A model generated the notes under the pieces. That model was not told where the DNA came from. It did not search any database and was given only the letters and a program-made list of their open reading frames with translations. A stretch of 31,111 nt of DNA. Source: a virus. Lineage: Duplodnaviria > Heunggongvirae > Uroviricota > Caudoviricetes. Made by a program: the position numbers and the translations under genes. Positions within the stretch are counted from its first letter, which is position 1. Every line of letters begins with the position of its first letter. Of this stretch, positions 1,129 through 31,111 are shown piece after piece. The stretch is taken from IMG/VR virus record IMGVR_UViG_2563366800_000008; one strand, 5' to 3'.

Positions 1129-1248
1129 CAGTTTCGCCGCGCTATTGGCATAAATTAACTGTTCCTCAAAGGGCGAAACGATCCAGACAGGACTGGTGAG
1201 TAAGTCCAGTGACTAGTGACAGTGATGTATGGATCAAACAGAGAACCC

Positions 1249-1288
1249 GGGAATAACCGGGAATTCATGGGAATTAACGGGAGGAAGG
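1249..1288. repeat. Four tandem 10-bp units GGGAATAACC / GGGAATTCAT / GGGAATTAAC / GGGAGGAAGG near the prophage left end
   Basis: Directly visible head-to-tail repeat with 10-bp period, about 40 bp inside the inferred terminus. Position fits transposase end-binding sites (attL). Confidence 0.5.
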
Positions 1289-1506
1289 CTTGAGTTGTGA
1301 GGCTTCGCACAACGTTAAGCTACTCGACTTGTGGAAAATCTGGCATATCGTCAATTTTGGATCATTCGATAGCGAAGCCAGTTAAGTGTCACATAGATTT
1401 GGATCGTATAGCAGTTAATTTCAAAGCGTTTAACGGGATTTAAACTCAGCTTAAAATGCCCACAGGAGGTGCGAAGGTAAAGCCAGCCAATTGAGCACTT
1501 TTGCAA

Positions 1507-2106
1507 TCAGCCAGCTTTATTTCGCGTGCTCAGCTTCGGCGCGGCTTGAATCTGTTCATTGGGATCACGTTGTTCAAAAATCTCTCTATCTGCACTGGCT
1601 TCCAAATCAGCTACCATCGGCATTAAAGCGTTCAGCCCACCTTGCATGAAAACCTTAATAACATACTGTTTTTGACGCTCTGTTAAGTTGTCGAAAAGCA
1701 TTATCCATAGGTCCCGAGCTGTTGAGCTTGGTGACGATAAGGCTGAGTCAGGTATAACTGAGCGCTCTTCTACCCCCAAGAATTTCTTTGTTTCTTCTGG
1801 CAAGACCGATACATGATATTCATATGCTTTCGATTTAGCCTTCTTACGTTTCAACTTAGGATTATTACTCACAAGTTGTTCCAGTTTCCGCCGGACATTC
1901 GGCGCTCCACTGGGGAAACCTGGTAGACCAATACAATCCTGAACTGACACCCATTCACTAAAATCAACCATATCATTCACCGTACTTTTCTGTGTTATTG
2001 AAAAATACATCTGGTACTTTTTTGTGATTAACCACGGAAAATCAAGTAACGAATTGATTTTAAATAAAATATCATGGTTAACCTCATCAACCATAAAAGT
2101 ACGCAA
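1507..2106 (-). CDS. c: Mu c-type repressor (winged-helix DNA-binding)
   Basis: 199-aa ORF transcribed away from the early operon, at the left end as in Mu. Segment GGLNALMPMV resembles the Mu repressor as I recall it. ORF-track start is a TTG at 2104-2106; first ATG is at 2092-2094, so the true start is uncertain. Confidence 0.7.
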   Translation of the reverse strand: MRTFMVDEVNHDILFKINSLLDFPWLITKKYQMYFSITQKSTVNDMVDFSEWVSVQDCIGLPGFPSGAPNVRRKLEQLVSNNPKLKRKKAKSKAYEYHVSVLPEETKKFLGVEERSVIPDSALSSPSSTARDLWIMLFDNLTERQKQYVIKVFMQGGLNALMPMVADLEASADREIFEQRDPNEQIQAAPKLSTRNKAG

Positions 2107-2200
2107 AAGTATTTACTTTCGTTCTTTTGTGTTCTAATCTTTACTCGTAGTGGTTAGCGATATTGCTGACCTGAACGTGTAAACATTTAAGGATCGCAGA
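2107..2200. promoter_or_regulatory. Divergent early/repressor promoter and operator region
   Basis: AT-rich 94-bp gap between the leftward repressor and rightward ner. Direct repeats TTTACTTTCG (2112-2121) and CTTTACTCG (2139-2147). Position corresponds to Mu Pe/Pc operators. Confidence 0.5.
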
Positions 2201-2437
2201 ATGATGACCAAAAGCCAAGACTGGCACCCGGAAGACATCAAAGCAGCGATTAGGAAACGTGGGATGACTACCAGTCAGCTCTCCAGAAGCAACGGATTAG
2301 CGGAATCAACATTACGAAATGTATTCCGCCACCACTGGCCGAAAGGGGAAAAAATTATTGCTGAGTTTCTGGGGCTTACCCCCAGAGATATTTGGCCCTC
2401 ACGTTATGAAGCTGTATCAGTCAAAGAGGTTGCATAA
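2201..2437 (+). CDS. ner: Ner-like DNA-binding transcriptional regulator
   Basis: 78-aa ORF; HHWPKGEKIIAEFLGLTPRDIWPSRY resembles Mu Ner. AAGGA Shine-Dalgarno 7 nt upstream. Stop overlaps the transposase start (TAATG). Confidence 0.85.
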   Translation: MMTKSQDWHPEDIKAAIRKRGMTTSQLSRSNGLAESTLRNVFRHHWPKGEKIIAEFLGLTPRDIWPSRYEAVSVKEVA

Positions 2438-4514: not shown

Positions 4515-5453
4515 ATGACGCAAATTAACCATGATGTTGTGCGCAGTGCCATTCGTGAACTTATCGACAGCAAGACGATTTCCGGTGCAGCGCTGGCGCG
4601 TGAGACCGGTACATCAACCGCGACGGTTTCACAGTTCCTGAACGGGAAATACAAAGGTGACAATGACACCGTAGCTGCCAGCCTGAATACCTGGCTTGAA
4701 AGTCACAACGCCGCGAAAACCACGCTTCCGGTGGCCCCTGATTTCGTTGAGACACCGACCTCTCAGAAAATCCTCGCCACCCTGACGTGGGCGCAGCTGG
4801 CCGGGACGATTGTGCTGGTTTACGGCAATCCGGGCGTGGGTAAGACAAAGGCTATCCGGCAGTATGCCGCAGGCGGTAATAACGTCTGGCACATCACCGC
4901 CAGCAAATCCCGCAGCAATGAGCTGGAGACCCTGTATGAACTGGCCCTGAAAATGGGCATCAGCGATGCGCCATACCGCCGTGGTGCACTCTCTCGCCTG
5001 CTGCGCCAGCGTCTGCCGGACACGCGCGGCCTGATAGTGGTGGATGAAGCCGACTGGCTGAGTCTGGATGCGGTGGAAGAGCTGCGTATTCTCCAGGAGG
5101 AATGTGGCGTGGGGCTGGCACTGGTGGGTAACCACAAGGTCTATGACCGTCTTACCGGCGGCCAGCGCAGCGTGGATTTTGCCCGCCTGTTCTCCCGCGT
5201 GTCCAAGAAGTACGTCATCAATACCGTTTCCGCTGGTGACGTGGACAGCTTCTGCGATGCCTGGCAGGTCACCGGCGCTGACGAACGCAAGCTGCTGAAG
5301 GCTATCGCCCGACGTCCGGGGGCGCTGCGTTCTCTGTCGCACATCCTGCCGCTGGCCGGAATTTACGCTCAGGGCAAGGGTGAGACCATTGGCACGGCGC
5401 ACATCCAGTCCGCCATGCTGGAGCTGGGCCACAGCGGTATCGGAGAGGAGTGA
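4515..5453 (+). CDS. B: MuB-type AAA+ ATPase, transposition target DNA activator
   Basis: 312-aa ORF with Walker A motif GNPGVGKT and N-terminal HTH-like region; same length and position as Mu B. Confidence 0.9.
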   Translation: MTQINHDVVRSAIRELIDSKTISGAALARETGTSTATVSQFLNGKYKGDNDTVAASLNTWLESHNAAKTTLPVAPDFVETPTSQKILATLTWAQLAGTIVLVYGNPGVGKTKAIRQYAAGGNNVWHITASKSRSNELETLYELALKMGISDAPYRRGALSRLLRQRLPDTRGLIVVDEADWLSLDAVEELRILQEECGVGLALVGNHKVYDRLTGGQRSVDFARLFSRVSKKYVINTVSAGDVDSFCDAWQVTGADERKLLKAIARRPGALRSLSHILPLAGIYAQGKGETIGTAHIQSAMLELGHSGIGEE

Positions 5454-5457: not shown

Positions 5458-5697
5458 ATGATCGCCGAACGTATTGCAGAGCACATCAGCATGGCAGAAG
5501 CGGCGCAGAACTGGCTGCGTGCGCGTGGCAGTCGCGTGACTGACGTTCGGGTGTTTATGCGTCGCCCGCTGCTGGAGATTGCCTGCCCGCCGGTTGAGCT
5601 GCTTAACAGCGCAGAGCGCATTGCTGAATCACACAACGGTGGCACCCGCTCCGTCTGGGTCGCCAGTCTGGAAGGTTGCCGGATTATCTGGAGGTAA
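5458..5697 (+). CDS. Hypothetical early-region protein
   Basis: 79-aa ORF from ATG 5458 with GAGGAG 9 nt upstream; sits where Mu has kil. No family recognised. Confidence 0.5.
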   Translation: MIAERIAEHISMAEAAQNWLRARGSRVTDVRVFMRRPLLEIACPPVELLNSAERIAESHNGGTRSVWVASLEGCRIIWR

Positions 5698-5699
5698 GC

Positions 5700-5990
5700 A
5701 TGGGGTGGAGAACGGGTAAAACATGGTCCCCCGAAGAGCTTCGCATTCTTGAGCAGAGTGCAGGGAAAGTCAGTGTTATCGGGCTGGCTCAGCAACTGGG
5801 ACGTACAAAACAGTCCGTTCAGAATTGCGCTCTTCGTCTTGGACTGTCACTGCGTATTCGTACAGAGGACGAGCATGATGCGTATTTATGCCGTGAGCTT
5901 TATAAGGAGGGGCTGACCGTTGCGATCATCGCAGAAAAAATGGAAATGTCCCGTCGTCAGGTTTTTAACATCGTTTATCGCGACAGCTAA
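5700..5990 (+). CDS. Hypothetical protein with two HTH-like segments, putative DNA-binding
   Basis: 96-aa ORF from ATG 5700 with GGAGG upstream. Segments VIGLAQQLGRTKQSVQNCALRLGL and LTVAIIAEKMEMSRRQVFNIV look like helix-turn-helix motifs. Confidence 0.5.
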   Translation: MGWRTGKTWSPEELRILEQSAGKVSVIGLAQQLGRTKQSVQNCALRLGLSLRIRTEDEHDAYLCRELYKEGLTVAIIAEKMEMSRRQVFNIVYRDS

Positions 5991-6004
5991 CTTAAAGGTT
6001 TTTT

Positions 6005-6280
6005 ATGACTGAGAAACAGCAATCAATATTAATCGCTTATGCGTGGGCCAGCGGGCTGATTGAATTTGGTCAGACACTCCCGGAAGGCGCTTTACCTATC
6101 GCGAGCGCCCGTCATCACAAGCGGCTCCGGGAGGTCATAAATGTTTACGCACGCCACGGATATGCCCCTGGGCAGCTACTGGTTCCGGGGATTCCTGAAG
6201 CAGCCACCCAGAACGAAGCCGGAGTGGCTCTGACAAAGTTCTGTTTTTATGTTGAACGCGCATTACTGAATAAGGATTAA
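6005..6280 (+). CDS. Hypothetical early-region protein
   Basis: 91-aa ORF, AAGG upstream, same strand and tight packing as neighbours. No family recognised. Confidence 0.5.
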   Translation: MTEKQQSILIAYAWASGLIEFGQTLPEGALPIASARHHKRLREVINVYARHGYAPGQLLVPGIPEAATQNEAGVALTKFCFYVERALLNKD

Positions 6281-6284
6281 AACA

Positions 6285-6536
6285 ATGGCTAAACAGGTTA
6301 TCACCATTGTCATTGAGGATGGCATCGTTCAGAAAAGTGACAAATCAATTAATAACGAACTACCTGAAGGGAAACTCAATATTCAGTTTCATCTTAATAA
6401 CACAAATGATGATGGTTCATTTTCGTTTCTGGTTGCTGAAGGTCTGTCAGCTATTTTCCCGATGGCGATCCAGCAGGTCACCACGTTTGTGAAAGCAAGG
6501 GTGGAGCAGGATAACCGTAAAATAATCAAACACTGA
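6285..6536 (+). CDS. Hypothetical early-region protein
   Basis: 83-aa ORF, lower GC than neighbours, 4 bp after the previous ORF. No family recognised. Confidence 0.45.
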   Translation: MAKQVITIVIEDGIVQKSDKSINNELPEGKLNIQFHLNNTNDDGSFSFLVAEGLSAIFPMAIQQVTTFVKARVEQDNRKIIKH

Positions 6537-6543
6537 GGTTGAT

Positions 6544-7071
6544 ATGAAAGCACCTAAAAAACCACGAGCCAAGTCTGCTGCGGCAGTGGCCGTTCCGCAG
6601 TCACGTGAAGACGTGATTAACGATATCCGAAAAATTGGCGACATCACCCGTGTCATTTTGCGCCGTGAAACAGAACTGAATGACAAACTGGCCGAGCTGA
6701 CTAACGACGCCGCTCCCGGAATTGAAGCGCTCAAGAAAGAGCTGGGCCGCTTACAAACTGGCGTCCAGACGTGGTGTGAAGCCAACCGTGCAGAGCTTAC
6801 GAAAGACGGTAAGACCAAGACGGCCAACCTGACAACGGGCGAAGTTCGCTGGCGTAAGCGCCCGCCCAGCGTCACCATTCGCAAAGTTGAAGATGTTATT
6901 GCGTTACTCAAGAAATTCAGCCTGGGTAAATTTCTTCGCAATAAAGAGGAAATTAATAAAGAGGCAATTCTTGCATCACCGAATGAAGTTAAGGGAATTG
7001 CAGGGATATCCATTAAATCAGATGTTGAGGATTTTGAAATAATCCCATTTGAACAAACTGTAACTGATTAA
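6544..7071 (+). CDS. gam: Gam host-nuclease inhibitor (DNA end-binding, Ku-like)
   Basis: 175-aa ORF; segments TWCEANRAELTKDGKTKTANLTTGEVRWRKRPPSV and KSDVEDFEIIPFEQ resemble Mu Gam as recalled. Confidence 0.85.
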   Translation: MKAPKKPRAKSAAAVAVPQSREDVINDIRKIGDITRVILRRETELNDKLAELTNDAAPGIEALKKELGRLQTGVQTWCEANRAELTKDGKTKTANLTTGEVRWRKRPPSVTIRKVEDVIALLKKFSLGKFLRNKEEINKEAILASPNEVKGIAGISIKSDVEDFEIIPFEQTVTD

Positions 7072-7160: not shown

Positions 7161-7817
7161 ATGACCAGGCATACGATTATCAATATCCAGCAGATACGTG
7201 ACGATATCTGCAAACGTAAAGCAATGCCGCCATTTGGCCCCGATACCAGTATTAATCGTCTTAAAACTATCAATGAGACCCAGCGCAGTTTCACTCTTGA
7301 AGTCGTGGAATTGTTGCTGGGTGAAATAGACGTCCTGTCAAAATCAGAATGGACACTGGCGGATGAACTGGTCAAGGCCCAAAAACGCATAGCTGAGCAG
7401 GAACGCACTAACACCGCCCAGGACGATCACATCAATCAGCAGGCAGACCGTATCGAATGCCTGGAAAAGAAAAACGACGATCTGGGCAAAGCTATTAGGG
7501 CCGCACTTCCATCGTTTTCACTGTCACCAGCAGCATCTGATGTTCTGGCCGAGCGCCAGCGGCAGATATCGGTTAAGGGGTACACTACACAGCAGGACGA
7601 CACATATATTGAAGGTGAGCTGGCCGCAGCGGCTATAAGTTACATAGAGCCTTTGGCGGCTGAAGAATACTGGCCTGCTGACTGGCATGATGACAGTTTC
7701 AAACCGTCAGACTATCGTCGAAATTTAGTGAAAGCATGTGCGCTTTTGATTGCAGAAATTGAGCGTATTGACCGCCAGTCGGAGGGAAATAACGATGAGC
7801 CGCGCATCCCTGATTAA
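7161..7817 (+). CDS. Hypothetical protein, coiled-coil N-terminal half and acidic C-terminal half
   Basis: ORF open from 7107; ATG 7161 has GGAG 9 nt upstream, with alternative ATGs at 7107 and 7146. Occupies the slot between gam and gemA. No family recognised. Confidence 0.5.
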   Translation: MTRHTIINIQQIRDDICKRKAMPPFGPDTSINRLKTINETQRSFTLEVVELLLGEIDVLSKSEWTLADELVKAQKRIAEQERTNTAQDDHINQQADRIECLEKKNDDLGKAIRAALPSFSLSPAASDVLAERQRQISVKGYTTQQDDTYIEGELAAAAISYIEPLAAEEYWPADWHDDSFKPSDYRRNLVKACALLIAEIERIDRQSEGNNDEPRIPD

Positions 7818-8322
7818 GTTAATCCATGTTGCCCGTCGCAATCTACAACTGGACGATGACACCTACCGCTCTGTACTGATGCGAGTGACGGGAAAGCAAA
7901 GCTGTCGTGACCTGAGAGTCGGCCAACTGGAGGATGTGCTGAAGGTACTGGAGGATAAGGGTTTCATTCGTACCCGTCCCCGTTCTCCGGCTCGCCGTCA
8001 TCGTGAGACAGATATCACCGCAAAGGTCCGCAGCATCTGGCGGCAGATGCATCTTGATGGGTTTATCCGTGATGGCAGCGATACCTCACTCGATTCGTTC
8101 GTCGCGAAGATGACTGTCAGAACCAACAAAGGTAAAGGTATCGCCAGCCTGGCATGGTGCCGTGGCGATAATCTTCTGATGGTGCTGGAAAGCCTCAAGC
8201 AATGGCACCTGAGAGAAATGACAGAGGCGCTGAGTCCGCGAGACCTGGCATTTCAGGATAATCGGGGTTATGACGCCATCAACAGCCTGTATTCCAGTAA
8301 AGTAAGAAAGGTGCGCACATGA
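7795..8322 (+). CDS. gemA: GemA-like protein (Mu gp16 family)
   Basis: N-terminus MSRASLIKLIHVARRNLQLDDDTYRSVLMRVTGKQSCRDL resembles Mu GemA. ATG at 7795; the ORF-track start at 7750 is a TTG. Confidence 0.75.
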   Translation: MSRASLIKLIHVARRNLQLDDDTYRSVLMRVTGKQSCRDLRVGQLEDVLKVLEDKGFIRTRPRSPARRHRETDITAKVRSIWRQMHLDGFIRDGSDTSLDSFVAKMTVRTNKGKGIASLAWCRGDNLLMVLESLKQWHLREMTEALSPRDLAFQDNRGYDAINSLYSSKVRKVRT

Positions 8323-8726
8323 GCGAAAAGCAGAATGACCTGTTTGGTGATATCCAGGATGACAGCATTCTGGAGCACCTGGACGATGACAGTTCGGCGG
8401 AAACTGTGCGTTTCCCTGCACTGCTGACAGAACTGAATACGCTGTTGCGTGGCGAACTGACAAAGCATGGTGTTGACCCACGAATCTCTCTGGAGCTGGT
8501 CTATGCGATTAGCTGTCAGATTGGTGGAATGCAGATTTATTTTCCACGCGGCCAGACTCTTGAGTCATTGATTCGTGATATGAAAATCTGGCGTGATTTC
8601 AATGGCAGAAACATCACAGAGTTGGTTGAGCGTTACCGTGTTACCTATAAAACGGTGTATAAAGCAATCCGGAGAATGCGAAAGTTAGAGCAAGGTAAGA
8701 GGCAGCTCTCATTTAATATGGAGTGA
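8319..8726 (+). CDS. mor: Mor/C-family transcriptional activator
   Basis: 135-aa ORF; DLFGD..DD.IL.HLD...RFPALL.EL..LLRGEL and C-terminal HTH TVYKAIRRMR resemble Mu Mor. Start overlaps the gemA stop (ATGA). Confidence 0.85.
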   Translation: MSEKQNDLFGDIQDDSILEHLDDDSSAETVRFPALLTELNTLLRGELTKHGVDPRISLELVYAISCQIGGMQIYFPRGQTLESLIRDMKIWRDFNGRNITELVERYRVTYKTVYKAIRRMRKLEQGKRQLSFNME

Positions 8727-8730
8727 TAAT

Positions 8731-9054
8731 ATGGTTGGTGTGATTGTTATTAACATAGTTTGTATTATATGTGTTTTTTGGGTTTTCTTTGATGCTACTT
8801 CTAACAACATAGGAAGTTATGTTGTTAGAGACGGTGTGCGAAAAGGATGTCGCAGAGGCATACACCCTGTGGTTTGGGCTGCGCTGAGTATATTTATACT
8901 TCCTTTTATTTGGTATCTGATCAACAGGAAATCTTTATTGATCGCTGCGGAAGAATATCCAGTAAAGACTGATAAAAGCGTAAGTTTTATTATTCTACTT
9001 TTGTTGGTATCAGGATGGTTGCTCTATCGCTACAAAGATTATTTATTCTATTAA
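8731..9054 (+). CDS. Small hydrophobic membrane protein (about 3 predicted TM segments), AT-rich moron-like gene
   Basis: 107-aa ORF with visibly lower GC than its flanks and three hydrophobic stretches; followed by an intrinsic terminator. Occupies the position of C in Mu but is not a Mor/C homologue. Confidence 0.55.
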   Translation: MVGVIVINIVCIICVFWVFFDATSNNIGSYVVRDGVRKGCRRGIHPVVWAALSIFILPFIWYLINRKSLLIAAEEYPVKTDKSVSFIILLLLVSGWLLYRYKDYLFY

Positions 9055-9070
9055 GTTATAGCCAATACAA

Positions 9071-9086
9071 TGAAGCCGGTTAATCC
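9071..9086 (+). promoter_or_regulatory. Conserved motif TGAAGCCGGTTAATCC upstream of the lysis operon; candidate late-promoter activator site
   Basis: Identical 16-mer recurs at 17045-17060 upstream of the head gene; both copies lie 76-80 nt before the first ATG of an operon. Confidence 0.45.
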
Positions 9087-9097
9087 GGCTTTTTTTT
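9073..9097 (+). terminator. Rho-independent terminator
   Basis: Perfect inverted repeat AAGCCGG-TTAAT-CCGGCTT followed by a run of T residues. Confidence 0.7.
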
Positions 9098-9150
9098 CGT
9101 CCGGCACATGATGGAAGGGAAATCTAACCCACTTCCAAAGGTGCCGTTTT

Positions 9151-9741
9151 ATGAACAACACCCCCGATTCTCCCGCATTTCGCAATGCTCTTGCTTTCGT
9201 GCTCAGCGCAGAACGCGGATATGTCAATGACCCCACTGACCGTGGCGGTGAAACTAACTTCGGTATATCAGATAAACGCGACGGTGTTGCCGATGGCATG
9301 ACCGACGTTAATGGCGATGGCAAGCCTGATACTCGTATTCGTGATTTAACGGTTGAACAGGCCGGACAGATTTACTTCCGTGACTACTGGTATCCGGCGT
9401 ATTGCCAGTTATGGCCGGATGATATCGCCCTGTTTGTCTTTGATTCTGCCGTCCAGCATGGCGTCAAAAAGGCTGTCCAGTTGCTTCAGGAAGCTGTGGG
9501 TTTCACTGGCAAAAGCGTTGACGGTATCGCCGGTAAAAACACCCGTGCAGCCGTTGAGCGTGCTGACCCTGACTGGCTGCTGAACCGTTTGTTTCTGCAA
9601 CGTTCCCGCTATTACGCCGACATCATCAAAGCAAACTCTTCGCAGGGCAAGTTCCTCAACGGCTGGTTTAACCGCCTTGACAACCTCGCTGACGCCTGTC
9701 GTGAGATTTCCGGTGTCCGCTATTCGGTAGCCCGGAGCTGA
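9151..9741 (+). CDS. Endolysin, GH108-type lysozyme with C-terminal peptidoglycan-binding domain
   Basis: 196-aa ORF; N-terminal LSAERGYVNDPTDRGGETNFGI and C-terminal region VDGIAGKNTRAAVE fit the GH108 plus PG_binding_3 architecture as I recall it. Confidence 0.8.
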   Translation: MNNTPDSPAFRNALAFVLSAERGYVNDPTDRGGETNFGISDKRDGVADGMTDVNGDGKPDTRIRDLTVEQAGQIYFRDYWYPAYCQLWPDDIALFVFDSAVQHGVKKAVQLLQEAVGFTGKSVDGIAGKNTRAAVERADPDWLLNRLFLQRSRYYADIIKANSSQGKFLNGWFNRLDNLADACREISGVRYSVARS

Positions 9742-9742
9742 T

Positions 9743-9961
9743 ATGGGCAAGGGATGGGACGCTTCGCTGAAACAGGGACGACGTGACCGGCTGAGGCAGG
9801 AAGTTCTTCACCGAATAGCAGGTGGCCCCGTCCCCGTTCCGACAAGTTATGCAGGTCATGACGGTACACACGCCAGTTACTACATGCGCGGCTGGTCATC
9901 CGTCGATATCAGAGACATCGTCTGGCAATGCCAGCGATACAAGGAAAAACACAATGTTTAA
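9743..9961 (+). CDS. Hypothetical lysis-cassette protein
   Basis: 72-aa ORF starting 2 nt after the endolysin stop; no TM segment or lipobox seen. Confidence 0.4.
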   Translation: MGKGWDASLKQGRRDRLRQEVLHRIAGGPVPVPTSYAGHDGTHASYYMRGWSSVDIRDIVWQCQRYKEKHNV

Positions 9962-11466: not shown

Positions 11467-11472
11467 GAGGCT

Positions 11473-21253: not shown

Positions 21254-21422
21254 GCCATCACGGGCGGGCCTGCTCGTTCGTAAGGCTGATGGCAGTCACC
21301 TTGCCGCTGATGGCGAGACGCTGCCGGTCAATGCGTACTGGCTGCGCCGTGAAAAAGAAGGCGATGTGAATATCACTGAGCCACCGAAGTCCCGCACACC
21401 TAAAACCGATAAGGAGGCATGA
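21234..21422 (+). CDS. Small Mu gp38-like protein
   Basis: 62-aa ORF with AGAAGGA upstream; immediately precedes the sheath gene. Confidence 0.5.
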   Translation: MTKKMIKPSRAGLLVRKADGSHLAADGETLPVNAYWLRREKEGDVNITEPPKSRTPKTDKEA

Positions 21423-22900: not shown

Positions 22901-22909
22901 GGAACCAGC

Positions 22910-23266
22910 ATGGCAAATATTCTGGGTATGGCGGCGATTCGTATTAATGGCCGTGAAATCAAAACTGAAGGCAAGTCCACCCTGAATCCGGGTGGCTATG
23001 CCCGCCAGCAACACATGGGCGGCGGTAAGGTCTGGGGGAATTCCCGCAAGATGGCTGCCCCCTCCATCAAACTGACCATTGCAGCGGATCGTGACGTTGA
23101 TGTGATTGAAATCAGTAACTGGGAGGACGTGACCGTCATGTTCTACGGTGACAACGGCCTCAACTACATGATGACCGGCGCGGCCACCGATAACCCGGCT
23201 GAACTGGACGAAGACGCGGGGACAGTTTCGGCTAACTTCATCGGCGTCAAGTGTGTGAAGGTGTAA
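22910..23266 (+). CDS. Tail tube protein (Mu M family)
   Basis: 118-aa ORF after the sheath gene, AAGGA upstream. Confidence 0.8.
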   Translation: MANILGMAAIRINGREIKTEGKSTLNPGGYARQQHMGGGKVWGNSRKMAAPSIKLTIAADRDVDVIEISNWEDVTVMFYGDNGLNYMMTGAATDNPAELDEDAGTVSANFIGVKCVKV

Positions 23267-23269
23267 GAC

Positions 23270-23665
23270 ATGGCTGAACTGACATTCCCTCTGGTACACG
23301 GTCTGCGCACCGGCAAAGGTACTACCGACGAAATGCTTCACAAGGATGTGACGCTACGCGAGCTGACATCACGGGATGTTATCGAATCACAACTGGCCTC
23401 CGAGCGCGTTGTGATTGGGGATAACGGCAAGGCGGTTGCCTACTGCTCTGAGGTCATGATGGGTCTGGAGATGATGCGCCGGCAGATTAAGAAGATTGGA
23501 GAAATCCCCGGCCCGCTGGACATGAATCAAATTTATGCCCTGCATCCGGAAGATTTGAAGTTGCTGACAGAAAAGGGTCAGGCGATGGATGACATGCTGG
23601 GGGAGACTGCCGAACGGGGGCGACATGATGCCGATGGCAGCGGCGCTCAATCTACTGCTGATTAA
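23270..23665 (+). CDS. Tail assembly chaperone
   Basis: 131-aa ORF between the tube and tape-measure genes, the conserved chaperone position. Confidence 0.65.
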   Translation: MAELTFPLVHGLRTGKGTTDEMLHKDVTLRELTSRDVIESQLASERVVIGDNGKAVAYCSEVMMGLEMMRRQIKKIGEIPGPLDMNQIYALHPEDLKLLTEKGQAMDDMLGETAERGRHDADGSGAQSTAD

Positions 23666-23774
23666 CCTCTCTCAGCGTTTCGATGTTAACCGGCTTGAGC
23701 AACTGCCCCTACGGCAGTTGCTTATTCAGGTCAGGCAACTGAGGAAGCAATATGACAAACCGCCTAAGCACTGA
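23589..23774 (+). CDS. Possible frameshift extension of the tail assembly chaperone
   Basis: ORF in the +1 frame overlapping the chaperone's last 77 nt and ending just inside the tape-measure gene; G-runs at 23600-23605 and 23615-23620 lie in the overlap. Confidence 0.3.
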   Translation: MTCWGRLPNGGDMMPMAAALNLLLINLSQRFDVNRLEQLPLRQLLIQVRQLRKQYDKPPKH

Positions 23775-25671
23775 AATTCTGATTAACCTTGCCGGGAACC
23801 TGACGGCTAAAGCCCGCCAGTACGGCGCTAACATGAGCGAGTTTGCCAGCCGTAACCAGAAAGCAATGTCTGTTGTTAAGGCCGCGTCTGAATCTGCCGG
23901 ACGTGGTCTGGACATGCTCAGTAATCGCTATACAACGATGATTGCCGGCCTTGCCAGCGGCGCAGCGCTGAGAGAATTTGCTAAAACAGATCGACAATTA
24001 ACCGGGCTGGGTATTGCCGCCGGTAAAACTCGTGATGAGATGCGCAATATCTTTGATGGTATTCAGGATACCGCCATCAAATTCCGGGTGGATGACTCGG
24101 AGGTGTTGGCCGCACTGGAGAATGTCAACAAAACGACCGGTGATCTGGATTTCGGTATTCAGAATAAGGGCATGATAGCCGCCTCTATCGCTGCATCAGG
24201 CTCTCAGGGGGATTCGATTGGCGGACTGTTTTCTCAGTTCCCCAAATTTGGTCTTCAGACTGAAAAGCAGACGCTTGCAGCTATGGACACGTTAAACCTT
24301 CTGGGAAAAGAAGGCGCATTTGAGCTGAAAGACATTGCAGAAAAAGGCGTCAGAGCCTTCTCTATGTACTCCGCTGCTGGCGGGAGTGGCGTTAAGGGAG
24401 TCAAAGACGTAGGCGTTGTACTGGAATCAGCCATTGATGCCACAGGCAACCGTGATACAGCAGCCACGGCGACTGAAAACCTTATTCGTGATCTGCAGTT
24501 GCCAAAGGTTGTTAGCACCCTTCGAAAGAATGGTGTCAACGTTTATGACAAAGATGGGAAGATGCGATCACTTCCAACACTCCTGGAGGAAATCGCTAAA
24601 AAATCAGGGAGTAAAGGTTCTGAGAAACAGAATAAAAGACTCCTGGAAGCCGGTTTTAACCAGGACAGTATTTTACTTATCAGCAGTGCCACCTCTGGTA
24701 AAGGAGCAGAAAACCTCAAGCGATACCAGTCAGTTGTCGGGGACGGCACAGGCATCATGAAAGATGCTGAATATGCGGCGAAAGATTTTACTTCGGCACT
24801 GACCAGCCTGAATGTTACCTGGAAGAAGTTTTCTAACAGCAATCTTGCCGGCCCGGTACAGGACCTGGCTGATGCTATCAATTCAGTTGATCAAAAGACG
24901 GTTCAGAACTGGCTGGAAGTCGGCAAGAAAATAGCCATTGCGACCGCTGGAGTCATTGCGGCACGTAAAGCATTTAAAATTGGTAAAGGTGCATGGGAGT
25001 TTCTCCAGCCAGAAAAAGGCGGAAAAGGCATCCCTAAAGGCGTCTCCGATGTTTTTGGCTCCGGTGTTATGCCCGTTTATGTCGTGAACATGGGCAAAGG
25101 TGGGATGGGGGGGCCGGGTGATTTAATCCCCGATGGACCTGATGGAAAAAATCCCCGTAAACCTAATAGTCCCAGACGTCCTGGCAGCCCACAGGAAATG
25201 GTCGGCCTGACCATGCTGGCGTCAACTATTCCATACCTTTATGAAGAACCATCACTGAGCAGTGATGACAAAGCTGGCATGGTTCAGTGGGCAAAGGATC
25301 GTGCCAAACGCAAAGCAAATGAGAAACCGGTTATTGACCCGCGCCCGTGGGCATCACTGACCCCGGCGACGCCGTTCATTCCTGCGGCTGAAAATCCCCC
25401 GGCAGACAGACCGCGCCCTGAAACGAGTGATCATTCTTTGTTTGGTGTCATCGTTGATTTTCTGCGTGGCACCAACGCCGCAATTGAAAACAAAAACGCG
25501 TTTGATAAGCCTGTTCAGCCACCTGCATTACCCACAACCCTACAGAAAATGCAGGGTGAAATCCGCGTGATCCTTGAGGGTGGCGGTGGCCGTGTTAAAA
25601 GCGTCACCATGAACCAGCCGGATATCAAACTTAGTGCATCTGCTGGCGTGTCCAGCGTGGAGCAAGGCTGA
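23752..25671 (+). CDS. Tail tape measure protein
   Basis: 639-aa ORF after the chaperone; long helical Ala-rich N-terminal region and Gly/Pro-rich C-terminal part. Confidence 0.85.
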   Translation: MTNRLSTEILINLAGNLTAKARQYGANMSEFASRNQKAMSVVKAASESAGRGLDMLSNRYTTMIAGLASGAALREFAKTDRQLTGLGIAAGKTRDEMRNIFDGIQDTAIKFRVDDSEVLAALENVNKTTGDLDFGIQNKGMIAASIAASGSQGDSIGGLFSQFPKFGLQTEKQTLAAMDTLNLLGKEGAFELKDIAEKGVRAFSMYSAAGGSGVKGVKDVGVVLESAIDATGNRDTAATATENLIRDLQLPKVVSTLRKNGVNVYDKDGKMRSLPTLLEEIAKKSGSKGSEKQNKRLLEAGFNQDSILLISSATSGKGAENLKRYQSVVGDGTGIMKDAEYAAKDFTSALTSLNVTWKKFSNSNLAGPVQDLADAINSVDQKTVQNWLEVGKKIAIATAGVIAARKAFKIGKGAWEFLQPEKGGKGIPKGVSDVFGSGVMPVYVVNMGKGGMGGPGDLIPDGPDGKNPRKPNSPRRPGSPQEMVGLTMLASTIPYLYEEPSLSSDDKAGMVQWAKDRAKRKANEKPVIDPRPWASLTPATPFIPAAENPPADRPRPETSDHSLFGVIVDFLRGTNAAIENKNAFDKPVQPPALPTTLQKMQGEIRVILEGGGGRVKSVTMNQPDIKLSASAGVSSVEQG

Positions 25672-27002
25672 TGGCTGCTACCCGATGGGAAGACCTGCGC
25701 GATGCTTCGTTCCGGGGCGTCTCGTTTTATCTGGTCGATAACGAAGGCACCAGCGGCCGTCGGGCAATTCCCCGCGCCTACCCCAAAAAAGAAGTGGGCT
25801 GGACCGAGGATAACGGTGCCGTTCTGACCCAACAGCAAATCAACGGCAAGCTGATTGGAAAGAACTACCAGAGCCAACTGGAGGCACTTCTCCGGGCTCT
25901 GAACACACCTGGACCCGGTGAACTTATCCATCCGTGGTTCGGCATTCAGAAGGTTCAGATTGGTAAGGTGACTCACCGTCTGAGCACTGAGGAAGGCGGC
26001 ATTGCCTACATCTCTTTTGAGGTATCTGAGGCGGGCGAGCGCCTGTTTCCTGCGCCGGCAGAAAATACCAGCCTGACGGTACTCAGCGCAGCGGATAAGG
26101 TCAAAGCTGCGCTGGCGAATGGCGATGTCTTTGCCCTGCTTGATGGTCTTGGTGAGATGGCCGATACGTGGATGGACGACATGGAAAATCTGGTAGTGGG
26201 TGTGCTGACGCTGCCCTCCGCGATTACTGAATGGACTGACCGTTTAGGGCGTTTTCGTGGGTTGATTGAGCTGGCCGTCGCGAAACCAGCCGGATTTATC
26301 AATGATGTTCTGAACCTTGTCAGCGGTGTACGCGACACCGTGACCGAACCTCTTTGGTCAATGCGGGTTTATGATCAGATCCGCAACCGGTGGCAGGGAG
26401 ATCAGTTTTCCGGTTCTTCATCTTCGCCGTGGTCGTCGCCGGTTTCGCCAACAAATACAAGTGACCGGGCGACAGCCGCTGCACTTCACCAGTTGCCCAA
26501 ATACATGTCAGTCACACCAGGTTCAGTGACTGACGGAAAGTATGGTTTTGCCAGCAGCCTTCCGGACGTTGTCCCTGAACTGACCGATGCCATGCAGGCC
26601 AACATCACTCATTTTCGTCAGCTGATTGTCGTTGCCAGCCTAATTGGACAGGCAGAGACCGTTGCCAGCACCGAGTTCAGAAGTAGTGAGGAAGCCATAA
26701 GTGCGGGTGACACGCTGGCTGAGCAACTGAATGAACAAGCTGTGTATGCCGTAGAAAACGGTCAGCGGAATTTGTGGCATGCCCTGCGCGAGCTGCGCTT
26801 TGCCGTCGTCAATGACGTGCGGGTCAGAAGCGCTCAGCTACCACAGACACGAACGGTCATTCTGACCACAACGTCCCCGGTATCTCTGATTGCATGGCGT
26901 GAAACCGGTAATACCGAGAACCGTGACGCCATCGCGTCAAGGAACCGATTGAAAGACCCGGCGTTCGTTCTTCCGGGTAAACCTGTCGAGGTAACAGATT
27001 GA
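25671..27002 (+). CDS. DNA circularization protein (Mu N family)
   Basis: 443-aa ORF directly after the tape measure, the position of Mu N; start overlaps the upstream stop. Confidence 0.75.
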   Translation: MAATRWEDLRDASFRGVSFYLVDNEGTSGRRAIPRAYPKKEVGWTEDNGAVLTQQQINGKLIGKNYQSQLEALLRALNTPGPGELIHPWFGIQKVQIGKVTHRLSTEEGGIAYISFEVSEAGERLFPAPAENTSLTVLSAADKVKAALANGDVFALLDGLGEMADTWMDDMENLVVGVLTLPSAITEWTDRLGRFRGLIELAVAKPAGFINDVLNLVSGVRDTVTEPLWSMRVYDQIRNRWQGDQFSGSSSSPWSSPVSPTNTSDRATAAALHQLPKYMSVTPGSVTDGKYGFASSLPDVVPELTDAMQANITHFRQLIVVASLIGQAETVASTEFRSSEEAISAGDTLAEQLNEQAVYAVENGQRNLWHALRELRFAVVNDVRVRSAQLPQTRTVILTTTSPVSLIAWRETGNTENRDAIASRNRLKDPAFVLPGKPVEVTD

Positions 27003-28093
27003 TGGAAATGGTTGTGCTTGAGGTTGACGGCCAGCAGTGGGACGGATGGACAGAGATGTCCATCACTTCCTCACTGGAGGCTGTTGCCGGCGAATTTGAT
27101 CTCACTGTCACCACACAATGGTCAGAAGCATCACCACGCGTGATTAAGCAGGGCATGCCCTGCATCGTCAGGCTGGGAAAAGATACGGTTCTGACGGGGT
27201 ATATTGATGATTTCATTCCCAGCTATGACGCAGAAAACATGAGTATTCGCGTTATGGGGCGGGATAAAACCGGCGATCTCGTTGACAGCTCAGTGGTGCA
27301 TAAATCCGGCCAGTGGAAAGGTGTTCGACTGGAGCAACTGGCAGTGGAAATCTGCAAACCCTATGGCATCAGTGTTATCAGTGAAACTGACACTGGTGAA
27401 ACCTTCGGTAGCGTGGTGCTTGAACAGGGAGAGACCGCCTTCGATCTTCTTGACCGCCTGGCTAAACAACGCGGCGTTCTGCTGACTGCTGATGGTCTGG
27501 GTAATCTGATCATCACCCGTGCATCAACAAAGCGTGCCGGCGTTCCTCTGATTTTCGGGACCAATATTCTTGCAGCCCGCGGCCGGTTCAGCTGGCGTGA
27601 GAGAAACAGCCAGTACATCGTGAAAGGCACCTCCAGTGCGGGTGGGAGCACGTGGGACGATCAGCCAGTCAAAGTGATTGGAGGACGTCAGACCATCGTT
27701 GATGATGGTGACATCAACCGTTACCGCCCGAAAATTCTGGTCAATGAAGACAGCCTGACCGTCGGAGGCGCAAGTACACGCGGTGAATGGTACAAAGCGC
27801 GGATGATGGGCGAAGCCAACAGCACCGAAATTACACTGGCAGGATGGCGAGAGAATGGCGATGAAGGCCCGTTATGGCAGAAAAACAGGCGCGTTGATAT
27901 TGATGACCCGGTACAGAACCTGAAGGACTCATGGCTGATTAAAACCGTCACGTTTACTGAAGGTGATAACGGACGTCTCTGCGTTCTGACGCTGGTTCCC
28001 CCTGAGTCGATGGATATGCCTGAAACCAGTGCGAAAAAAGCAGGCAAGAAAGGCAAGAGATCAAAGGCAAAAACGGAGGAAACATGGGACTGA
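26999..28093 (+). CDS. Baseplate hub / tail protein (Mu P family, gpD-like)
   Basis: 364-aa ORF in the Mu P position, with a basic Lys-rich C-terminal tail. Confidence 0.75.
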   Translation: MMEMVVLEVDGQQWDGWTEMSITSSLEAVAGEFDLTVTTQWSEASPRVIKQGMPCIVRLGKDTVLTGYIDDFIPSYDAENMSIRVMGRDKTGDLVDSSVVHKSGQWKGVRLEQLAVEICKPYGISVISETDTGETFGSVVLEQGETAFDLLDRLAKQRGVLLTADGLGNLIITRASTKRAGVPLIFGTNILAARGRFSWRERNSQYIVKGTSSAGGSTWDDQPVKVIGGRQTIVDDGDINRYRPKILVNEDSLTVGGASTRGEWYKARMMGEANSTEITLAGWRENGDEGPLWQKNRRVDIDDPVQNLKDSWLIKTVTFTEGDNGRLCVLTLVPPESMDMPETSAKKAGKKGKRSKAKTEETWD

Positions 28094-28626
28094 ATCCGGC
28101 AAATATCGGTCGCACACTTGAAGGTATTGGACGCCGGCTGCGATTGCTCGTTGACAGGGCCGTTGTTCGTATCGTTACAGACAGTCTCGGGCGTCAGAAC
28201 CTCCAGATCCAGTCTCTGGCGGATTCCACCAATGATGATGTTGAACGTTTCCAGAACTACGGCCTGACGTCTGTGCCGCCAGTCGGTTCAGAAGCACTCA
28301 TTCTGGCAGTGGGGGGACGCCGGGAAGGTCTGGTGGCAATCGCTGTTGAAGACAAGCGCTGTCGTCCAAAAGGTCTGGAGGATGGAGAGGTCAGGTTATA
28401 TCACGGCGATGGTCAGTCTTATATCACCCTGAAAAAAGGTGGTCTTATCGACGTTAAAGGGAAATCGGTTAATTACGATGCCGGCGAATTGTTTGCGATA
28501 AATACAAAATTATTAAAAGTTAACGGCCCATCTGTATTTTCAAATGATATTCAGGTCGCCGGTAAATCTGTTCTTGAGCATTTCCATATGGACGGGGATG
28601 GCAAAAAAACATCGGAGATGAAATGA
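28084..28626 (+). CDS. Baseplate assembly protein V-like (spike)
   Basis: 180-aa ORF in the conserved baseplate order. Confidence 0.7.
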   Translation: MGLNPANIGRTLEGIGRRLRLLVDRAVVRIVTDSLGRQNLQIQSLADSTNDDVERFQNYGLTSVPPVGSEALILAVGGRREGLVAIAVEDKRCRPKGLEDGEVRLYHGDGQSYITLKKGGLIDVKGKSVNYDAGELFAINTKLLKVNGPSVFSNDIQVAGKSVLEHFHMDGDGKKTSEMK

Positions 28627-29075
28627 CTATTGGTATCAGCTGGAATAATCAACTCTCCAGAGGTGAACTGACAATTAACCATGATGGTTTATCGCGTGAT
28701 GAAGGACTGGTCACTTTGGTTCTGATTTGTCTTTTCACCGACGTCCGTGCTGATACTGATGACATTATTCCTGATAACTCATCGGACCCGAGAGGCTGGC
28801 CCGGCGACACATTTAGTGATTATCCGTGGGGATCGAAACTCTGGTTGCTGGATCGCGAGAAGCTGACGGAATCCGTCAGAATGCGGGTGGAAGATTATGC
28901 ACTGCTTTCTATGCAACCGCTTTTACGTTCTGGTTATGCGCGTAATGCAGCAGTCACAGCCACTATAAGCGGCAATGACCGAATTAATTTTATTGTCATT
29001 CTAACCCGCCCGGATAAAACGACGCTCCGGATTGAAATAAGTAAACGCTGGGAGTCCACTGCTAATGCCTTATAA
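28623..29075 (+). CDS. Baseplate protein, GP46 family (gpW/gp25-like)
   Basis: 150-aa ORF immediately upstream of the baseplate J gene. Confidence 0.7.
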   Translation: MTIGISWNNQLSRGELTINHDGLSRDEGLVTLVLICLFTDVRADTDDIIPDNSSDPRGWPGDTFSDYPWGSKLWLLDREKLTESVRMRVEDYALLSMQPLLRSGYARNAAVTATISGNDRINFIVILTRPDKTTLRIEISKRWESTANAL

Positions 29076-30141
29076 CGTTCCCGCGCTGCGCAAGCTTATT
29101 ACTGACGGCGAAAAAGATATTGCCTTTGAACTGGGGCTGCAAAAACTTCCGCCAGTAGGCGTTGAGAAAGCTCTAAATACCTCATTCAGCAATCAGGTTC
29201 GTGATTTATACGACCATCAGAGCTGGATTAAAGACCAGATTATTCCGTCTGTTAAATCTGATGATGAAACCATCATTGAGACTGCGGCCAGCGAAGGCGT
29301 CGTCAGAAAACAGGCCACGTTTGCTACGGGGCCGGCGGTATTTAAAGGGAATACACCGCTGCCGGAAGATATGGAGATGCAAACCGCTACCGGTATTGTT
29401 TATGCCGTGACGACTTCCGGCGTTCCTGTAGATGGGGTCATGACTGTAACCATTCAGGCCAGCGATGCCGGCGCGTCAGGAAACCTTCCGGAAGGTGAAA
29501 GCCTGACCCTGCTGTCCCCCGTTCCCGGCGTGGAAAGTATTGGTTTAACGGGTACGGGAGGCATCATCGGTGGTTCGGATATTGAGCCAGTTTCTGAATT
29601 GCTTGACCGGCTTTTATTCCGTAAACGCAATCCCCCCGTTGGTGGGGCTGTGCATGACTATGTCATCTGGGCGCGAGAAATGGCTGGTGTCAGTCGGGCG
29701 TGGGCATTTGATGCCTGGCATGGTCCCTGCACAATCGGACTGGCATGGGTTTATGACGATCGTTCAGTGATTACCCCCGGATATCAGGACCGGAAAAATA
29801 TGGAAGATTACCTTTTCCGTCATACCGACCCGGCGACTGGCGTATGGGTTGGTAAACCTGGAGGAATAGAAGTCTGGCCCGTGGAACTGGTGCTCCGTCC
29901 CGTCAATATGATTATTGGCATAACACCGGATACACCGGCCACGCGTAAAGCTGTCCAGTCCCGCCTGTTGACGCTTCAGAAGACGCTGCAACCAGGACAA
30001 ACGCTGCCCATTTCAGCGATTCGCACTGCTATCGGCACCGCATCTGGCGTGACGGATTACACGCTGAATCTGACCGCTGACATTCCCTGTGCTCAGAATG
30101 AACTTATCACTATCGGAGTGCTGACATGGCCCACAGTGTAG
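29065..30141 (+). CDS. Baseplate J-like protein (Mu gp47)
   Basis: 358-aa ORF in the baseplate wedge position. Confidence 0.8.
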   Translation: MPYNVPALRKLITDGEKDIAFELGLQKLPPVGVEKALNTSFSNQVRDLYDHQSWIKDQIIPSVKSDDETIIETAASEGVVRKQATFATGPAVFKGNTPLPEDMEMQTATGIVYAVTTSGVPVDGVMTVTIQASDAGASGNLPEGESLTLLSPVPGVESIGLTGTGGIIGGSDIEPVSELLDRLLFRKRNPPVGGAVHDYVIWAREMAGVSRAWAFDAWHGPCTIGLAWVYDDRSVITPGYQDRKNMEDYLFRHTDPATGVWVGKPGGIEVWPVELVLRPVNMIIGITPDTPATRKAVQSRLLTLQKTLQPGQTLPISAIRTAIGTASGVTDYTLNLTADIPCAQNELITIGVLTWPTV

Positions 30142-30716
30142 ATGAATGGCTGGGCGCTTTATGGCAGGTCATGCCACGTGGCAAAGCGTGGTCACGCGAT
30201 GAGGATGGTGATTTAAACCGTTTTTTACGGGCGTTAGCCAGGCGTTTAAGTCAGACGGAATTTGATGCAGAAAACCTGCTACCGGAGATGCGGCCAGAAA
30301 CAACATTTATGCTGCTGGAAGAATGGGAGGAATACCTTGAACTGCCGGAGTGTGGGCAGTTAAGCGGTACTGTAGAAGACCGACGTCGTGCTGTCGTGGA
30401 GAAGTATCACCGCAAAGGTGGCCTTTCCCCGTGGCAGATTGAAGCTGTGGCTGCCGCGCTTGGATTTACTATCCGGGTTACTGTCATTCTGCCTCACCAC
30501 TGCATGCGTAGCTGCGTGTATCCCCTTTATCCAGCTCGTTATCGCTGGACGTTACAGATTGATGTGATCGGTATCAACGGCGGACGTTTTACCTGTATCG
30601 ATAACGTCATGACACCGCTTCTGAGCGAACGTGCAAGAGAACTGGAGTGTGTGCTGACGAAATACCGTCTCGGCGGCACAGCATACGAATATTTTTATTC
30701 TTCAGGAGATAACTGA
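30126..30716 (+). CDS. Tail protein, Mu gp48 family (gpI-like)
   Basis: 196-aa ORF directly before the tail fibre gene. Confidence 0.7.
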
Positions 30717-31111
30717 TGTTTCACGTAGATAATTCAACCGGTGTTCCGGTTATGCCACAACCGTCTCCTGTCACCAGTGAGACCGAGCTTTTCTTTACTG
30801 AAGGAGGTAATGGCGTTCCTCCGACGTATCCCGGACCGGACTGGTTTAATGTCATTCAAAGCGAGCTGCTCAATATTCTCAAGGCCGCTGGGATTGATCC
30901 TGACAAAATGGACAACACGCAGATTCTGGTCGCTCTCAAAAAACTGTTTCTGAGTCGTTCCAATCCATTTGGCGACATTAAAGCAGATGGTGCGGCAGCA
31001 ATCGCGGCGGCTCTCACAAACCTTGGTTTGGGAGAAGCAGCTAAAAGGAATGTAGGTACAGGGGCGAATCAGATACCTGATATGAGCCTGTTCGCGTCAA
31101 GTAATACCGCA
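30716..31111 (+). CDS. Tail fibre protein, N-terminal part; runs off the window
   Basis: Open frame from ATG 30716 (overlapping the previous stop) with no stop to the window end; not in the ORF track because it is open-ended. Translation [60 protein letters not shown] resembles P2 H / Mu S tail fibre N-termini. Confidence 0.8.

Follow-up and report, generated by a model that had tools for sequence, protein, structure and literature searches.

Phage Mu reaches its late genes in three steps, in which early transcription leads to Mor, Mor leads to C, and C turns on the late operons. The middle promoter, Pm, is located in the gap between Mu mor and gp18, and promoters of this type lack a -35 element. 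Mor binds to a dyad centred at -43.5 and spanning -51 to -36 of Pm (PMC4287176), and Mor and C are promoter-specific, with no cross-activation of each other's promoters (PMC4287176, PMC4390567). The hallmarks of Mu-like phages are GemA, Mor, and a Mu-type portal (PMC9239132), and all three (PF06252, PF08765, and PF06074) were found in an Escherichia coli prophage that occupies positions 1210-31111 (29.9 kb) of IMG/VR record IMGVR_UViG_2563366800_000008, a 31,111-nt stretch of DNA that is referred to here as the window. Among the well-known Mu-like transposable phages, this prophage is a new member and is so far uncharacterised. The 29.9 kb examined here most probably form the left part of a 32.3-kb Mu-like transposable myovirus prophage that is intact, has been mobile recently, transposed into the host gene dgcM, belongs to a sister lineage of Mu, and would be regulated by a two-step Mor cascade.

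One Mor Activator and Two Mor Boxes

The preliminary description of this DNA had counted one Mor/C-family activator instead of two, and the comparison with Mu agrees. When all Mu proteins were searched against the complete prophage by tblastn, Mu C and Mu Mor both matched only the gene at 8319-8726 (mor). The predicted recognition helix, TVYKAIRRMR, is identical in the window Mor and Mu Mor; C has QIYQIIARQR. An open reading frame (ORF) of 107 amino acids (aa) between mor and the endolysin gene was considered as a hidden C homologue and was rejected, as it encodes a membrane protein with three transmembrane (TM) segments and has no Pfam match.

The 96-bp gap ahead of the endolysin gene holds AAGCCGGTTAATCCGGCTTTTTTT, 28 nt identical to the Mu mor-gp18 gap, and this shared block includes AGCCGGTTAATCCGGCT plus a T-run. 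The block (box 1) begins 80 bp upstream of the endolysin start. The exact box-1 sequence is also contained in a published primer, 'Mu Pm nt9163' (PMC9239132). Mu has one occurrence of the complete 17-nt dyad. A search of the window with the 17-mer, allowing up to three mismatches (approximately 0.07 matches expected by chance), revealed a single further site at 17048-17064, where 16 nt are identical once the flanks are included, TGAAGCCGGTTAATCC. This second box occupies the upstream half of the region corresponding to Mu PI, and the downstream part (...ACTG...) is still aligned with Mu. The same two-box layout was found in the copy of the prophage in E. coli ECONIH5, in a prophage of E. coli ETEC1732 (there as a variant, TAAAT), and in the Klebsiella phage record Kp4866-3. 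A 13-nt match to the core of the Mor box (AGCCGGTWAATCC) also lies within the gp47 baseplate gene of both Mu (30681-30693) and SfMu (31093-31105); it is probably due to chance, and the full 17-mer does not pick it up.

The single activator and the two boxes suggest a two-step cascade, from early genes to Mor to late genes, that replaces the Mu succession of early genes, Mor, C, and late genes; on our reading, the Mu middle step may have been lost, or never gained, in this lineage. The single Mor would be made from the early transcript and would bind to the Mu-Pm-type dyad at 9074-9090, turning on an operon of the endolysin, holin-candidate, TraR, DUF2730, and packaging genes. Binding of Mor to the second box, at about 17048-17060, would turn on the protease and capsid genes and, by read-through, the tail genes. 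Action of Mor at two late promoters is consistent with the genes that follow box 1, which are the endolysin gene and then homologues or positional equivalents of the genes of the Mu middle operon; the gp18 homologue, for example, is overlapped by the next membrane-protein gene by 8 nt, as in Mu. Taken one step further, one Mor, with the same recognition helix and box as Mu Mor, would directly drive the lysis-packaging and head operons from the positions of the C-dependent Mu promoters Plys and PI, as an ancestral-like or collapsed form of the Mu cascade. Mu Mor should then cross-activate, and the element would also provide an E. coli-hosted homologue of the DUF2730 'releasin' alongside a soluble endolysin that is not of the signal-arrest-release (SAR) type. 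We lean towards this extended proposal, with modest confidence.

Several points weigh against an intact prophage with such a cascade. For neither box could a -10 hexamer be assigned convincingly at the distance expected, the spacing from Mu Pm being ambiguous; there is no box ahead of the tail and baseplate genes (the Mu PP position), and expression of the tail genes by read-through is an assumption. The dyad and T-run at 9072-9098 also score as an intrinsic terminator, and a terminator role could explain part of the conservation of box 1. Furthermore, the right junction of the window copy falls outside the window, the adjacent membrane proteins offer candidate holins only, and a lipobox scan of all plus-strand frames from 8700 to 12500 did not find a spanin, but only implausible embedded ORFs. 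A possible third Mor box before the baseplate genes, a four-mismatch match at 26900, was rejected, since it is coding and not conserved in ETEC1732.

The lack of a Mor box before the tail genes, together with the imperfect dyad of box 2, would also fit a scheme in which Mor turns on the first operon only, and the late genes need a second, non-homologous activator, such as TraR or the gp26-like winged-helix protein, so that three steps are kept. TraR-family proteins are generally known as RNA polymerase-binding regulators, and the gp26-like protein has weak helix-turn-helix matches. However, neither of them has a known role in sequence-specific promoter activation, and the gp26 homologue is also present in Mu, where C does the job. 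Box 2, moreover, shares 16 identical bases with box 1, and its position is conserved in four relatives. A second activator is therefore unlikely in our view, and direct action of Mor at both boxes is preferred.

Relationship to Mu and Mosaicism

Megablast searches of 50,697 phage records, with window positions 1210-26000 and 25500-31111 as queries, returned no match to Mu, D108, or SfMu, which bears out the earlier proposal of a lineage separate from classical Mu. The best phage record was Kp4866-3, with 27% of the query matched at 74.6% nucleotide identity, well short of near-identity over the whole length to a characterised phage. The genus level of the International Committee on Taxonomy of Viruses lies at approximately 70% nucleotide identity. 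Protein identity to Muvirus ranges from 34 to 52% by module. Judged by these identities, the prophage is not a Muvirus, and its early module is a sister, approximately 50% identical, of that of Mu.

The closest relative depends on the module. Mean identity to Mu is 52% for the early, 34% for the head, and 35% for the tail genes (29 of the 48 genes have Mu homologues); the corresponding values for Kp4866-3 are 68% for lysis, 72% for head, and 64% for tail (37 of 48), and Vibrio phage martha shows 44-57% across modules (30 of 48). Among all phage records, the transposase is nearest to those of SfMu, D108, and Mu (51%), followed by Vibrio Mu-like phages (45-48%), and the portal is nearest to that of Kp4866-3 (72%), followed by the martha group (56%) and Shewanella MuM16-2 (52%), with Mu at 28%. 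The transposase of Kp4866-3 matches at 36% over 162 aa only. This switching of the nearest relative between modules indicates mosaicism, as the preliminary description had proposed. The ETEC1732 prophage (NZ_CP122823.1, 5592-40840), inserted in flhA, has Mu ends and matches Mu at 89-99% in c, ner, A, B, gam, and mom; its mor-to-baseplate region is 60-85% identical to the window prophage and 27-51% to Mu. The seam lies after gemA, which is 81% identical to the Mu gene, and before mor, at 63%. On these comparisons, the mosaicism is real, and ETEC1732 is a natural hybrid that marks the seam.

From mor rightward, the late module is of a type that Kp4866-3 and about 1% of E. coli genomes also carry, and to which martha is more distantly related. 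The terminase-portal segment was detected in 51 of 5,426 complete E. coli genomes, five of them at 95% identity or more and the others at approximately 71%. Sakai prophage Sp18 was rejected as a member of this group, having a 190-nt terminase match only. The closest matches to this transposase type outside E. coli are fragments in Trabulsiella (about 90%), followed by prophages of Kluyvera and Phytobacter (about 69-70%).

From c through to the fibre genes, the prophage and Mu are collinear, and this, with the 29 Mu homologues, is what would be seen in a vertically diverged Mu relative, in which the uneven similarity arose from faster evolution of the structural genes and not from modular exchange. 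Such divergence conflicts with the opposite ranking of the two nearest relatives, Kp4866-3 being close in the portal and distant in the transposase and Mu the reverse, and with ETEC1732, which joins a nearly Mu-identical early region to this late module. We consider vertical divergence improbable, and modular exchange the better account.

Insertion Site, Mobility, and Ends

Host DNA extends through position 1209 and is followed by prophage from exactly 1210 (TGACTAGTG...), as revealed by megablast against the 5,426 complete E. coli genomes; the left boundary given in the preliminary description was exact. The junction between dgcM (also named ydaM) and the prophage was seen in none of these genomes, and the insertion appears to be specific to this strain among them. 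Three other genomes carry window positions 1210-25000 at approximately 100% identity at other loci: the copy in CAVP776 sits inside a DUF932 gene, that in EC09 adjoins yiiE, and that in ECONIH4 lies inside a lambdoid tail-assembly gene. The full CAVP776 copy is 32,316 bp long, begins with TGACTAGTG... and finishes with ...GCGCGGCA (TG...CA), and is bordered by a direct 5-bp duplication, ACGGT. The ECONIH5 copy, which is 93% identical, splits narX and is flanked by the 5-bp duplication GCCGT. These three features, TG...CA ends, 5-bp duplications, and insertion at unrelated sites, characterise Mu-type transposition, and the presence of near-identical copies at four different loci in unrelated strains points to recent movement. 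Replication and integration would be Mu-style, with a MuA-type DDE transposase and a MuB ATPase acting on the TG...CA ends.

The window and the CAVP776 copy differ at two positions in the 29.8 kb ahead of the fibre cassette. By this copy, approximately 2.4 kb of the element lies beyond 31111, comprising the remaining fibre gene, fibre-assembly genes, an alternative fibre cassette on the opposite strand, a Gin-like invertase, and the right end.

A defective, domesticated remnant, instead of a functional phage, might be considered for a prophage that is known here from sequence alone, in which no spanin was detected and com and mom are absent. Against this, the near-identical copy has a full set of 48 genes with zero annotated pseudogenes, the element has recently moved among four loci in unrelated strains, and the target duplications are intact at two copies (CAVP776 and ECONIH5). 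A remnant is thus quite improbable, and an intact, potentially viable phage is the preferred interpretation.

Three same-strand TWTGGATCR repeats at 1228, 1356, and 1398 (offsets of 19, 147, and 189 from the tip) are the only matches to this motif in a 43.5-kb locus. They are candidate transposase sites, one near the tip and two approximately 130-170 bp further in, and a related sequence, ATTGGATCG, was recognised by eye in inverted orientation near the right end. Four 10-bp GGGAAT repeats at 1246-1285 (offsets 37-76) occupy the same offset as Mu nt 30-68 (CCGGGA/TCGGGA/ATGGGA), the GGGA-repeat region that holds the Mu pac signal. The earlier characterisation of the end repeats as unlike those of Mu holds for the left-end sequence, which does not match Mu L1, but not for the TG/CA termini, the 5-bp duplication, the one-plus-two spacing of the repeats, or the GGGA block, all of which are Mu-like; at the right end, represented by the CAVP776 copy, 18 of 27 positions match Mu R1 in a manual alignment.

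Gene Content

The features of the window are collected in Table 1. Scans with Rfam, for tRNAs, and with PADLOC revealed no Rfam family, tRNA, or defence protein.

Table 1. Features of the window, with positions counted from its first nucleotide.
Feature	Position	Strand	Evidence or remark
dgcM (diguanylate cyclase), interrupted host gene	1-1209	-	100% match in thousands of E. coli genomes, stopping at 1209
Prophage left end, terminal TG, repeat sites	1210-1506	+	Identity with copies elsewhere starts at 1210
Mu-type repressor (c analogue)	1507-2094	-	PF02316, E 2.8e-8; PHROG 7148 'transcriptional repressor', 5e-60, from residue 40
Divergent regulatory region	1972-2200	.	GTACTTTT(C/T)TGTG repeats at 1982 and 2014, inverted copy at 2092
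ner	2201-2437	+	PF13693, 8.6e-31; 51% to Mu Ner
Transposase A, 660 aa	2437-4419	+	PF02316, PF09039, PF02914, PF09299; 51% to Mu A over full length
Transposition ATPase B	4515-5453	+	AAA and Phage-MuB_C; 47% to Mu B
Early accessory genes: kil-like (55% to Mu gp5), gp9-like (46%), two small ORFs, gam	5458-7071	+	BLAST against Mu
gam	6544-7071	+	Phage_Mu_Gam, 1.3e-36; 56% to Mu
218-aa ORF	7161-7817	+	PHROG 9763 only
gemA	7795-8322	+	PF06252, 4.9e-31; 51% to Mu GemA
mor, sole Mor/C-family gene	8319-8726	+	PF08765, 1.8e-30; 63% to Mu Mor, 34-35% to Mu C
107-aa 3-TM membrane protein, in the Mu gp18-C slot	8731-9054	+	Three hydrophobic segments; no Pfam; PHROG 36430, function unknown
Mor box 1 and T8 run	9071-9098	+	AGCCGGTTAATCCGGCT at 9074-9090; identical to dyad in Mu mor-gp18 gap
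GH108 + PG_binding_3 endolysin, soluble	9151-9741	+	PF05838, 8.9e-22; PF09374, 7.9e-16; no Mu homologue
gp18-like ORF, 4-TM protein, and 202-aa protein: candidate holin region	9743-10957	+	BLAST, Pfam, hydrophobicity, PHROG
gp18-like ORF	9743-9961	+	67% to Mu gp18
4-TM protein	9954-10361	+	Candidate membrane-lesion factor
202-aa protein	10349-10957	+	Sub-threshold match to gene transfer agent (GTA) 3-TM holin family, E 0.031
TraR/DksA-type zinc-finger protein	10954-11160	+	PF01258, 2.4e-12
DUF2730 protein (Mu gp25 releasin family) and gp26-like protein	11161-11766	+	PF10805, 2.1e-30; TM domain at residues 10-30; 59% to Mu gp26
Two ORFs of unknown function, absent from Mu	11793-12414	+	BLAST, Pfam, PHROG
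gp27-like small terminase, large terminase, Mu-type portal, short F	12404-16917	+	Pfam; 70-86% to Kp4866-3, 56-69% to martha, 28-48% to Mu
Block resembling DNA right of Mu gyrase cut site	16990-17044	.	About 75% (estimated from alignment) to Mu 17897-17950
Mor box 2	17045-17064	+	TGAAGCCGGTTAATCC; 17-mer match at 17048-17064; begins 76 bp upstream of protease gene
Protease (I), major head protein (gpT), head-completion and neck genes	17121-21422	+	Pfam, BLAST
Contractile tail and baseplate: sheath, tube, chaperone, tape measure, N, P, and gp45-48 homologues	21422-30716	+	Names given by the Prokaryotic Genome Annotation Pipeline (PGAP) on near-identical copy; 24-43% to Mu, 54-84% to Kp4866-3
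5' part of tail-fibre gene, cut by window end	30716-31111	+	39% to Mu S N-terminus
gix-like invertase site	31013-31037	.	Core AAACCTTGGTTT at 31018-31029

The Mu-like transposition core named in the preliminary description (repressor, ner, A, B, gam, gemA, and mor) was confirmed by Pfam and by BLAST against Mu, with ner, A, B, Gam, GemA, and Mor passing the Pfam thresholds and showing 47-63% identity to their Mu counterparts. The repressor has a weak match to Mu c (29%, E 0.004), and between its residues 43-118 and residues 1-73 of the transposase encoded by the prophage itself there is 43% identity. In Mu, this arrangement allows c and MuA to bind common operator/enhancer DNA. The true start of the repressor is probably Met42, at about 1971, because both the homology to the transposase and the PHROG 7148 match begin there. 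This start would leave a 229-bp regulatory region, equal in size to the Mu c-ner interval, and the GTACTTTT(C/T)TGTG repeats within it are candidate operators. A repressor with a transposase-type N-terminal DNA-binding domain, together with Ner, would control this divergent early promoter region. Residues D274, D339, and E395 of the transposase align with D269, D336, and E392 of MuA. PGAP placed the transposase start of the near-identical copy at 2515, 26 codons short, and the ATG at 2437 aligns with Met1 of Mu A; the public start codons of both the transposase and the repressor in that copy are likely to be wrong. The idea of a non-Mu regulatory module proved overstated, as the repressor domain, ner, gemA, mor, and the Mor box are all of Mu type, the differences being that C has been lost and TraR is present.

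The 107-aa 3-TM gene, lying between mor and the terminator-like Mor box, would close the early transcript; different, longer ORFs occupy its slot in ECONIH5 and ETEC1732. The window Mor ends (8700-8726) in ...KRQLSFNME and the ECONIH5 Mor, which is 94% identical, in ...KHQLDLFGRE. The QLDLF of the ECONIH5 protein is a consensus-like beta-clamp-binding motif, and an N-terminal QNDLF is present in both Mors. Mu C has been reported to require clamp-binding motifs for late transcription (2026, PMC12867686).

Both the GH108 endolysin and the TraR gene, recognised earlier, were confirmed by Pfam. Neither a SAR nor a signal sequence was found on the endolysin, whose N-terminus is not hydrophobic, and the enzyme would thus need a membrane lesion to reach the wall. 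Lysis may proceed by this soluble endolysin and a membrane-permeabilising partner among the adjacent membrane proteins, of which the 4-TM and 202-aa proteins are candidate holins. The gp18-like and 202-aa ORFs match the N- and C-terminal parts of one PHROG profile, 2121, with the 4-TM ORF between them; their homologues are adjacent in Vibrio phage martha. Mu lys (the SAR muramidase gp22), the gp23 spanin, gp24, com, and mom gave no match at E <0.1 in the full prophage. TraR homologues are present in Kp4866-3, martha, and ETEC1732, with none in Mu or BcepMu. The DUF2730 protein retains the N-terminal TM domain that typifies the Mu gp25 family. DUF2730 proteins have also been found beside cytoplasmic endolysins, where their role is unexplained (PMC9239132). 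The label of a non-Mu lysis module is apt for the GH108 endolysin, which lacks a Mu homologue, but not for the module as a whole, in which homologues of Mu gp18, gp25 (DUF2730), and gp26 are kept.

The head-tail order is Mu-like, as had been stated (gp27, terminase, portal, F, protease, gpT, and sheath through to baseplate), with small departures, namely the G homologue, which is placed after the gp36 homologue and not after F, a short F of 264 aa versus 439 aa in Mu, and lineage-specific ORFs. The block at 16990-17044, near the prophage centre, contains phased T/A tracts (CGTTTTTAAACGTGTTTTAAACG...) and is conserved in ETEC1732 and Kp4866-3. It resembles Mu 17897-17950, which lies immediately to the right of the gyrase cut site annotated at Mu 17879/80, and is a candidate for the right arm of a strong gyrase site (for background on this site, see PMC10052514).

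Beyond the window end, the CAVP776 copy has an inverted partner of the gix-like site and a Gin homologue that is 80% identical to Mu Gin. The fibre gene of the window diverges from that copy from the gix-like site onward (31008-31111), and the diverged stretch is 97-98% identical to fibre genes of the Shigella phages SfI, SfII, and SfIV. Inversion of the fibre segment was rejected as the cause of the divergence, because the last 73 nt match neither strand of CAVP776. Their match to SfI, SfII, and SfIV points to replacement, and the event looks like a swap of the receptor-binding cassette at the invertase crossover site.

Significance

What makes the element most useful is that a genome with a single activator appears to employ the Mu Mor box twice, at two predicted late promoters. 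The apparent reduction from three tiers to two, with the exact Mor box retained, allows the evolution of Mor/C specificity and of the extra tier to be tested, and the lineage, found in roughly 1% of complete E. coli genomes, provides a Mu relative in a tractable host. It also offers a system for the study of DUF2730 function where the endolysin lacks a SAR domain. Ends, late promoters dependent on C, and lysis genes would be wrongly predicted in this lineage if rules derived from Mu were applied. For annotation, the gain is the true prophage start at 1210 and an extent of approximately 2.4 kb past the window. DgcM is a regulator of curli and biofilm formation; its gene is knocked out by the insertion, and the host phenotype may change.

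Comparison with Known Systems

With Mu, D108, and SfMu, the prophage shares the c-type repressor domain, ner, A (51%), B (47%), kil, gam (56%), gemA (51%), and mor (63%). The identical Mor box, the TG...CA ends, the 5-bp duplication, and Gin (80%) with gix-like sites are likewise in common with Mu, as are the types of portal, protease, gpT, sheath, and baseplate, and the central block next to the gyrase site. However, the head and tail proteins of Mu are only about 35% identical to those of the prophage. The prophage lacks the C, SAR GH24 endolysin, gp23 spanin, com, and mom of Mu, whereas GH108, TraR, extra ORFs, and a Mor box that is also at the PI position are present in the prophage but not in Mu. 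SfMu, a Muvirus, has two Mor/C genes and a Mu-type lysis cassette, in contrast to the single Mor and GH108 endolysin seen here; a Muvirus trait that the prophage does share is the Gin invertase with an invertible fibre segment (CAVP776 copy).

The suggestion that the element is closer to BcepMu/SfMu-type prophages did not survive, since SfMu is an ordinary Muvirus with a transposase as distant as that of Mu, and BcepMu has homologues of 7 of the 48 genes, at 21-37% across modules. BcepMu is also transposable, with one Mor/C homologue, a non-Mu endolysin, a large terminase (TerL) at 52%, and detectable GemA, F, and small terminase, but a BcepMu-type lineage is refuted by the gene-by-gene comparison and extremely improbable: BcepMu has an unrelated rve-type transposase (22% in alignment, no BLAST match), an inverted early arm, a P2-like tail that matches one of the ten prophage tail genes (the tape measure, 21%), and a transglycosylase endolysin, and it lacks both GH108 and a TraR homologue.

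Vibrio phage martha 12B12 and the Vibrio 1.028.O group resemble the prophage in having a single Mor, a DksA/TraR-like zinc finger, DUF2730, a short F, and G after the gp36 homologue, with 56% identity in the portal and 45-46% in the transposase. They differ in their marine Vibrio hosts, a LexA-type repressor, another endolysin, and the lack of Gam or Gin by BLAST. Kp4866-3 (OK490420, an UNVERIFIED, unannotated Klebsiella record) is the closest phage-database record. It has another transposase, no detectable Gam or Gin homologue, and other fibre genes, but shares with the prophage the two Mor boxes, the single Mor (72%), and the arrangement of GH108, TraR, and DUF2730. Finally, ETEC1732 and approximately 46 other complete E. 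coli genomes differ in that ETEC1732 has genuine Mu ends and early genes (c 94%, A 98%), com and mom, and no Gin or invertible segment, and are alike in the late module, which, from mor to the baseplate, is 60-85% identical at the amino acid level and includes GH108, TraR, and two Mor boxes.

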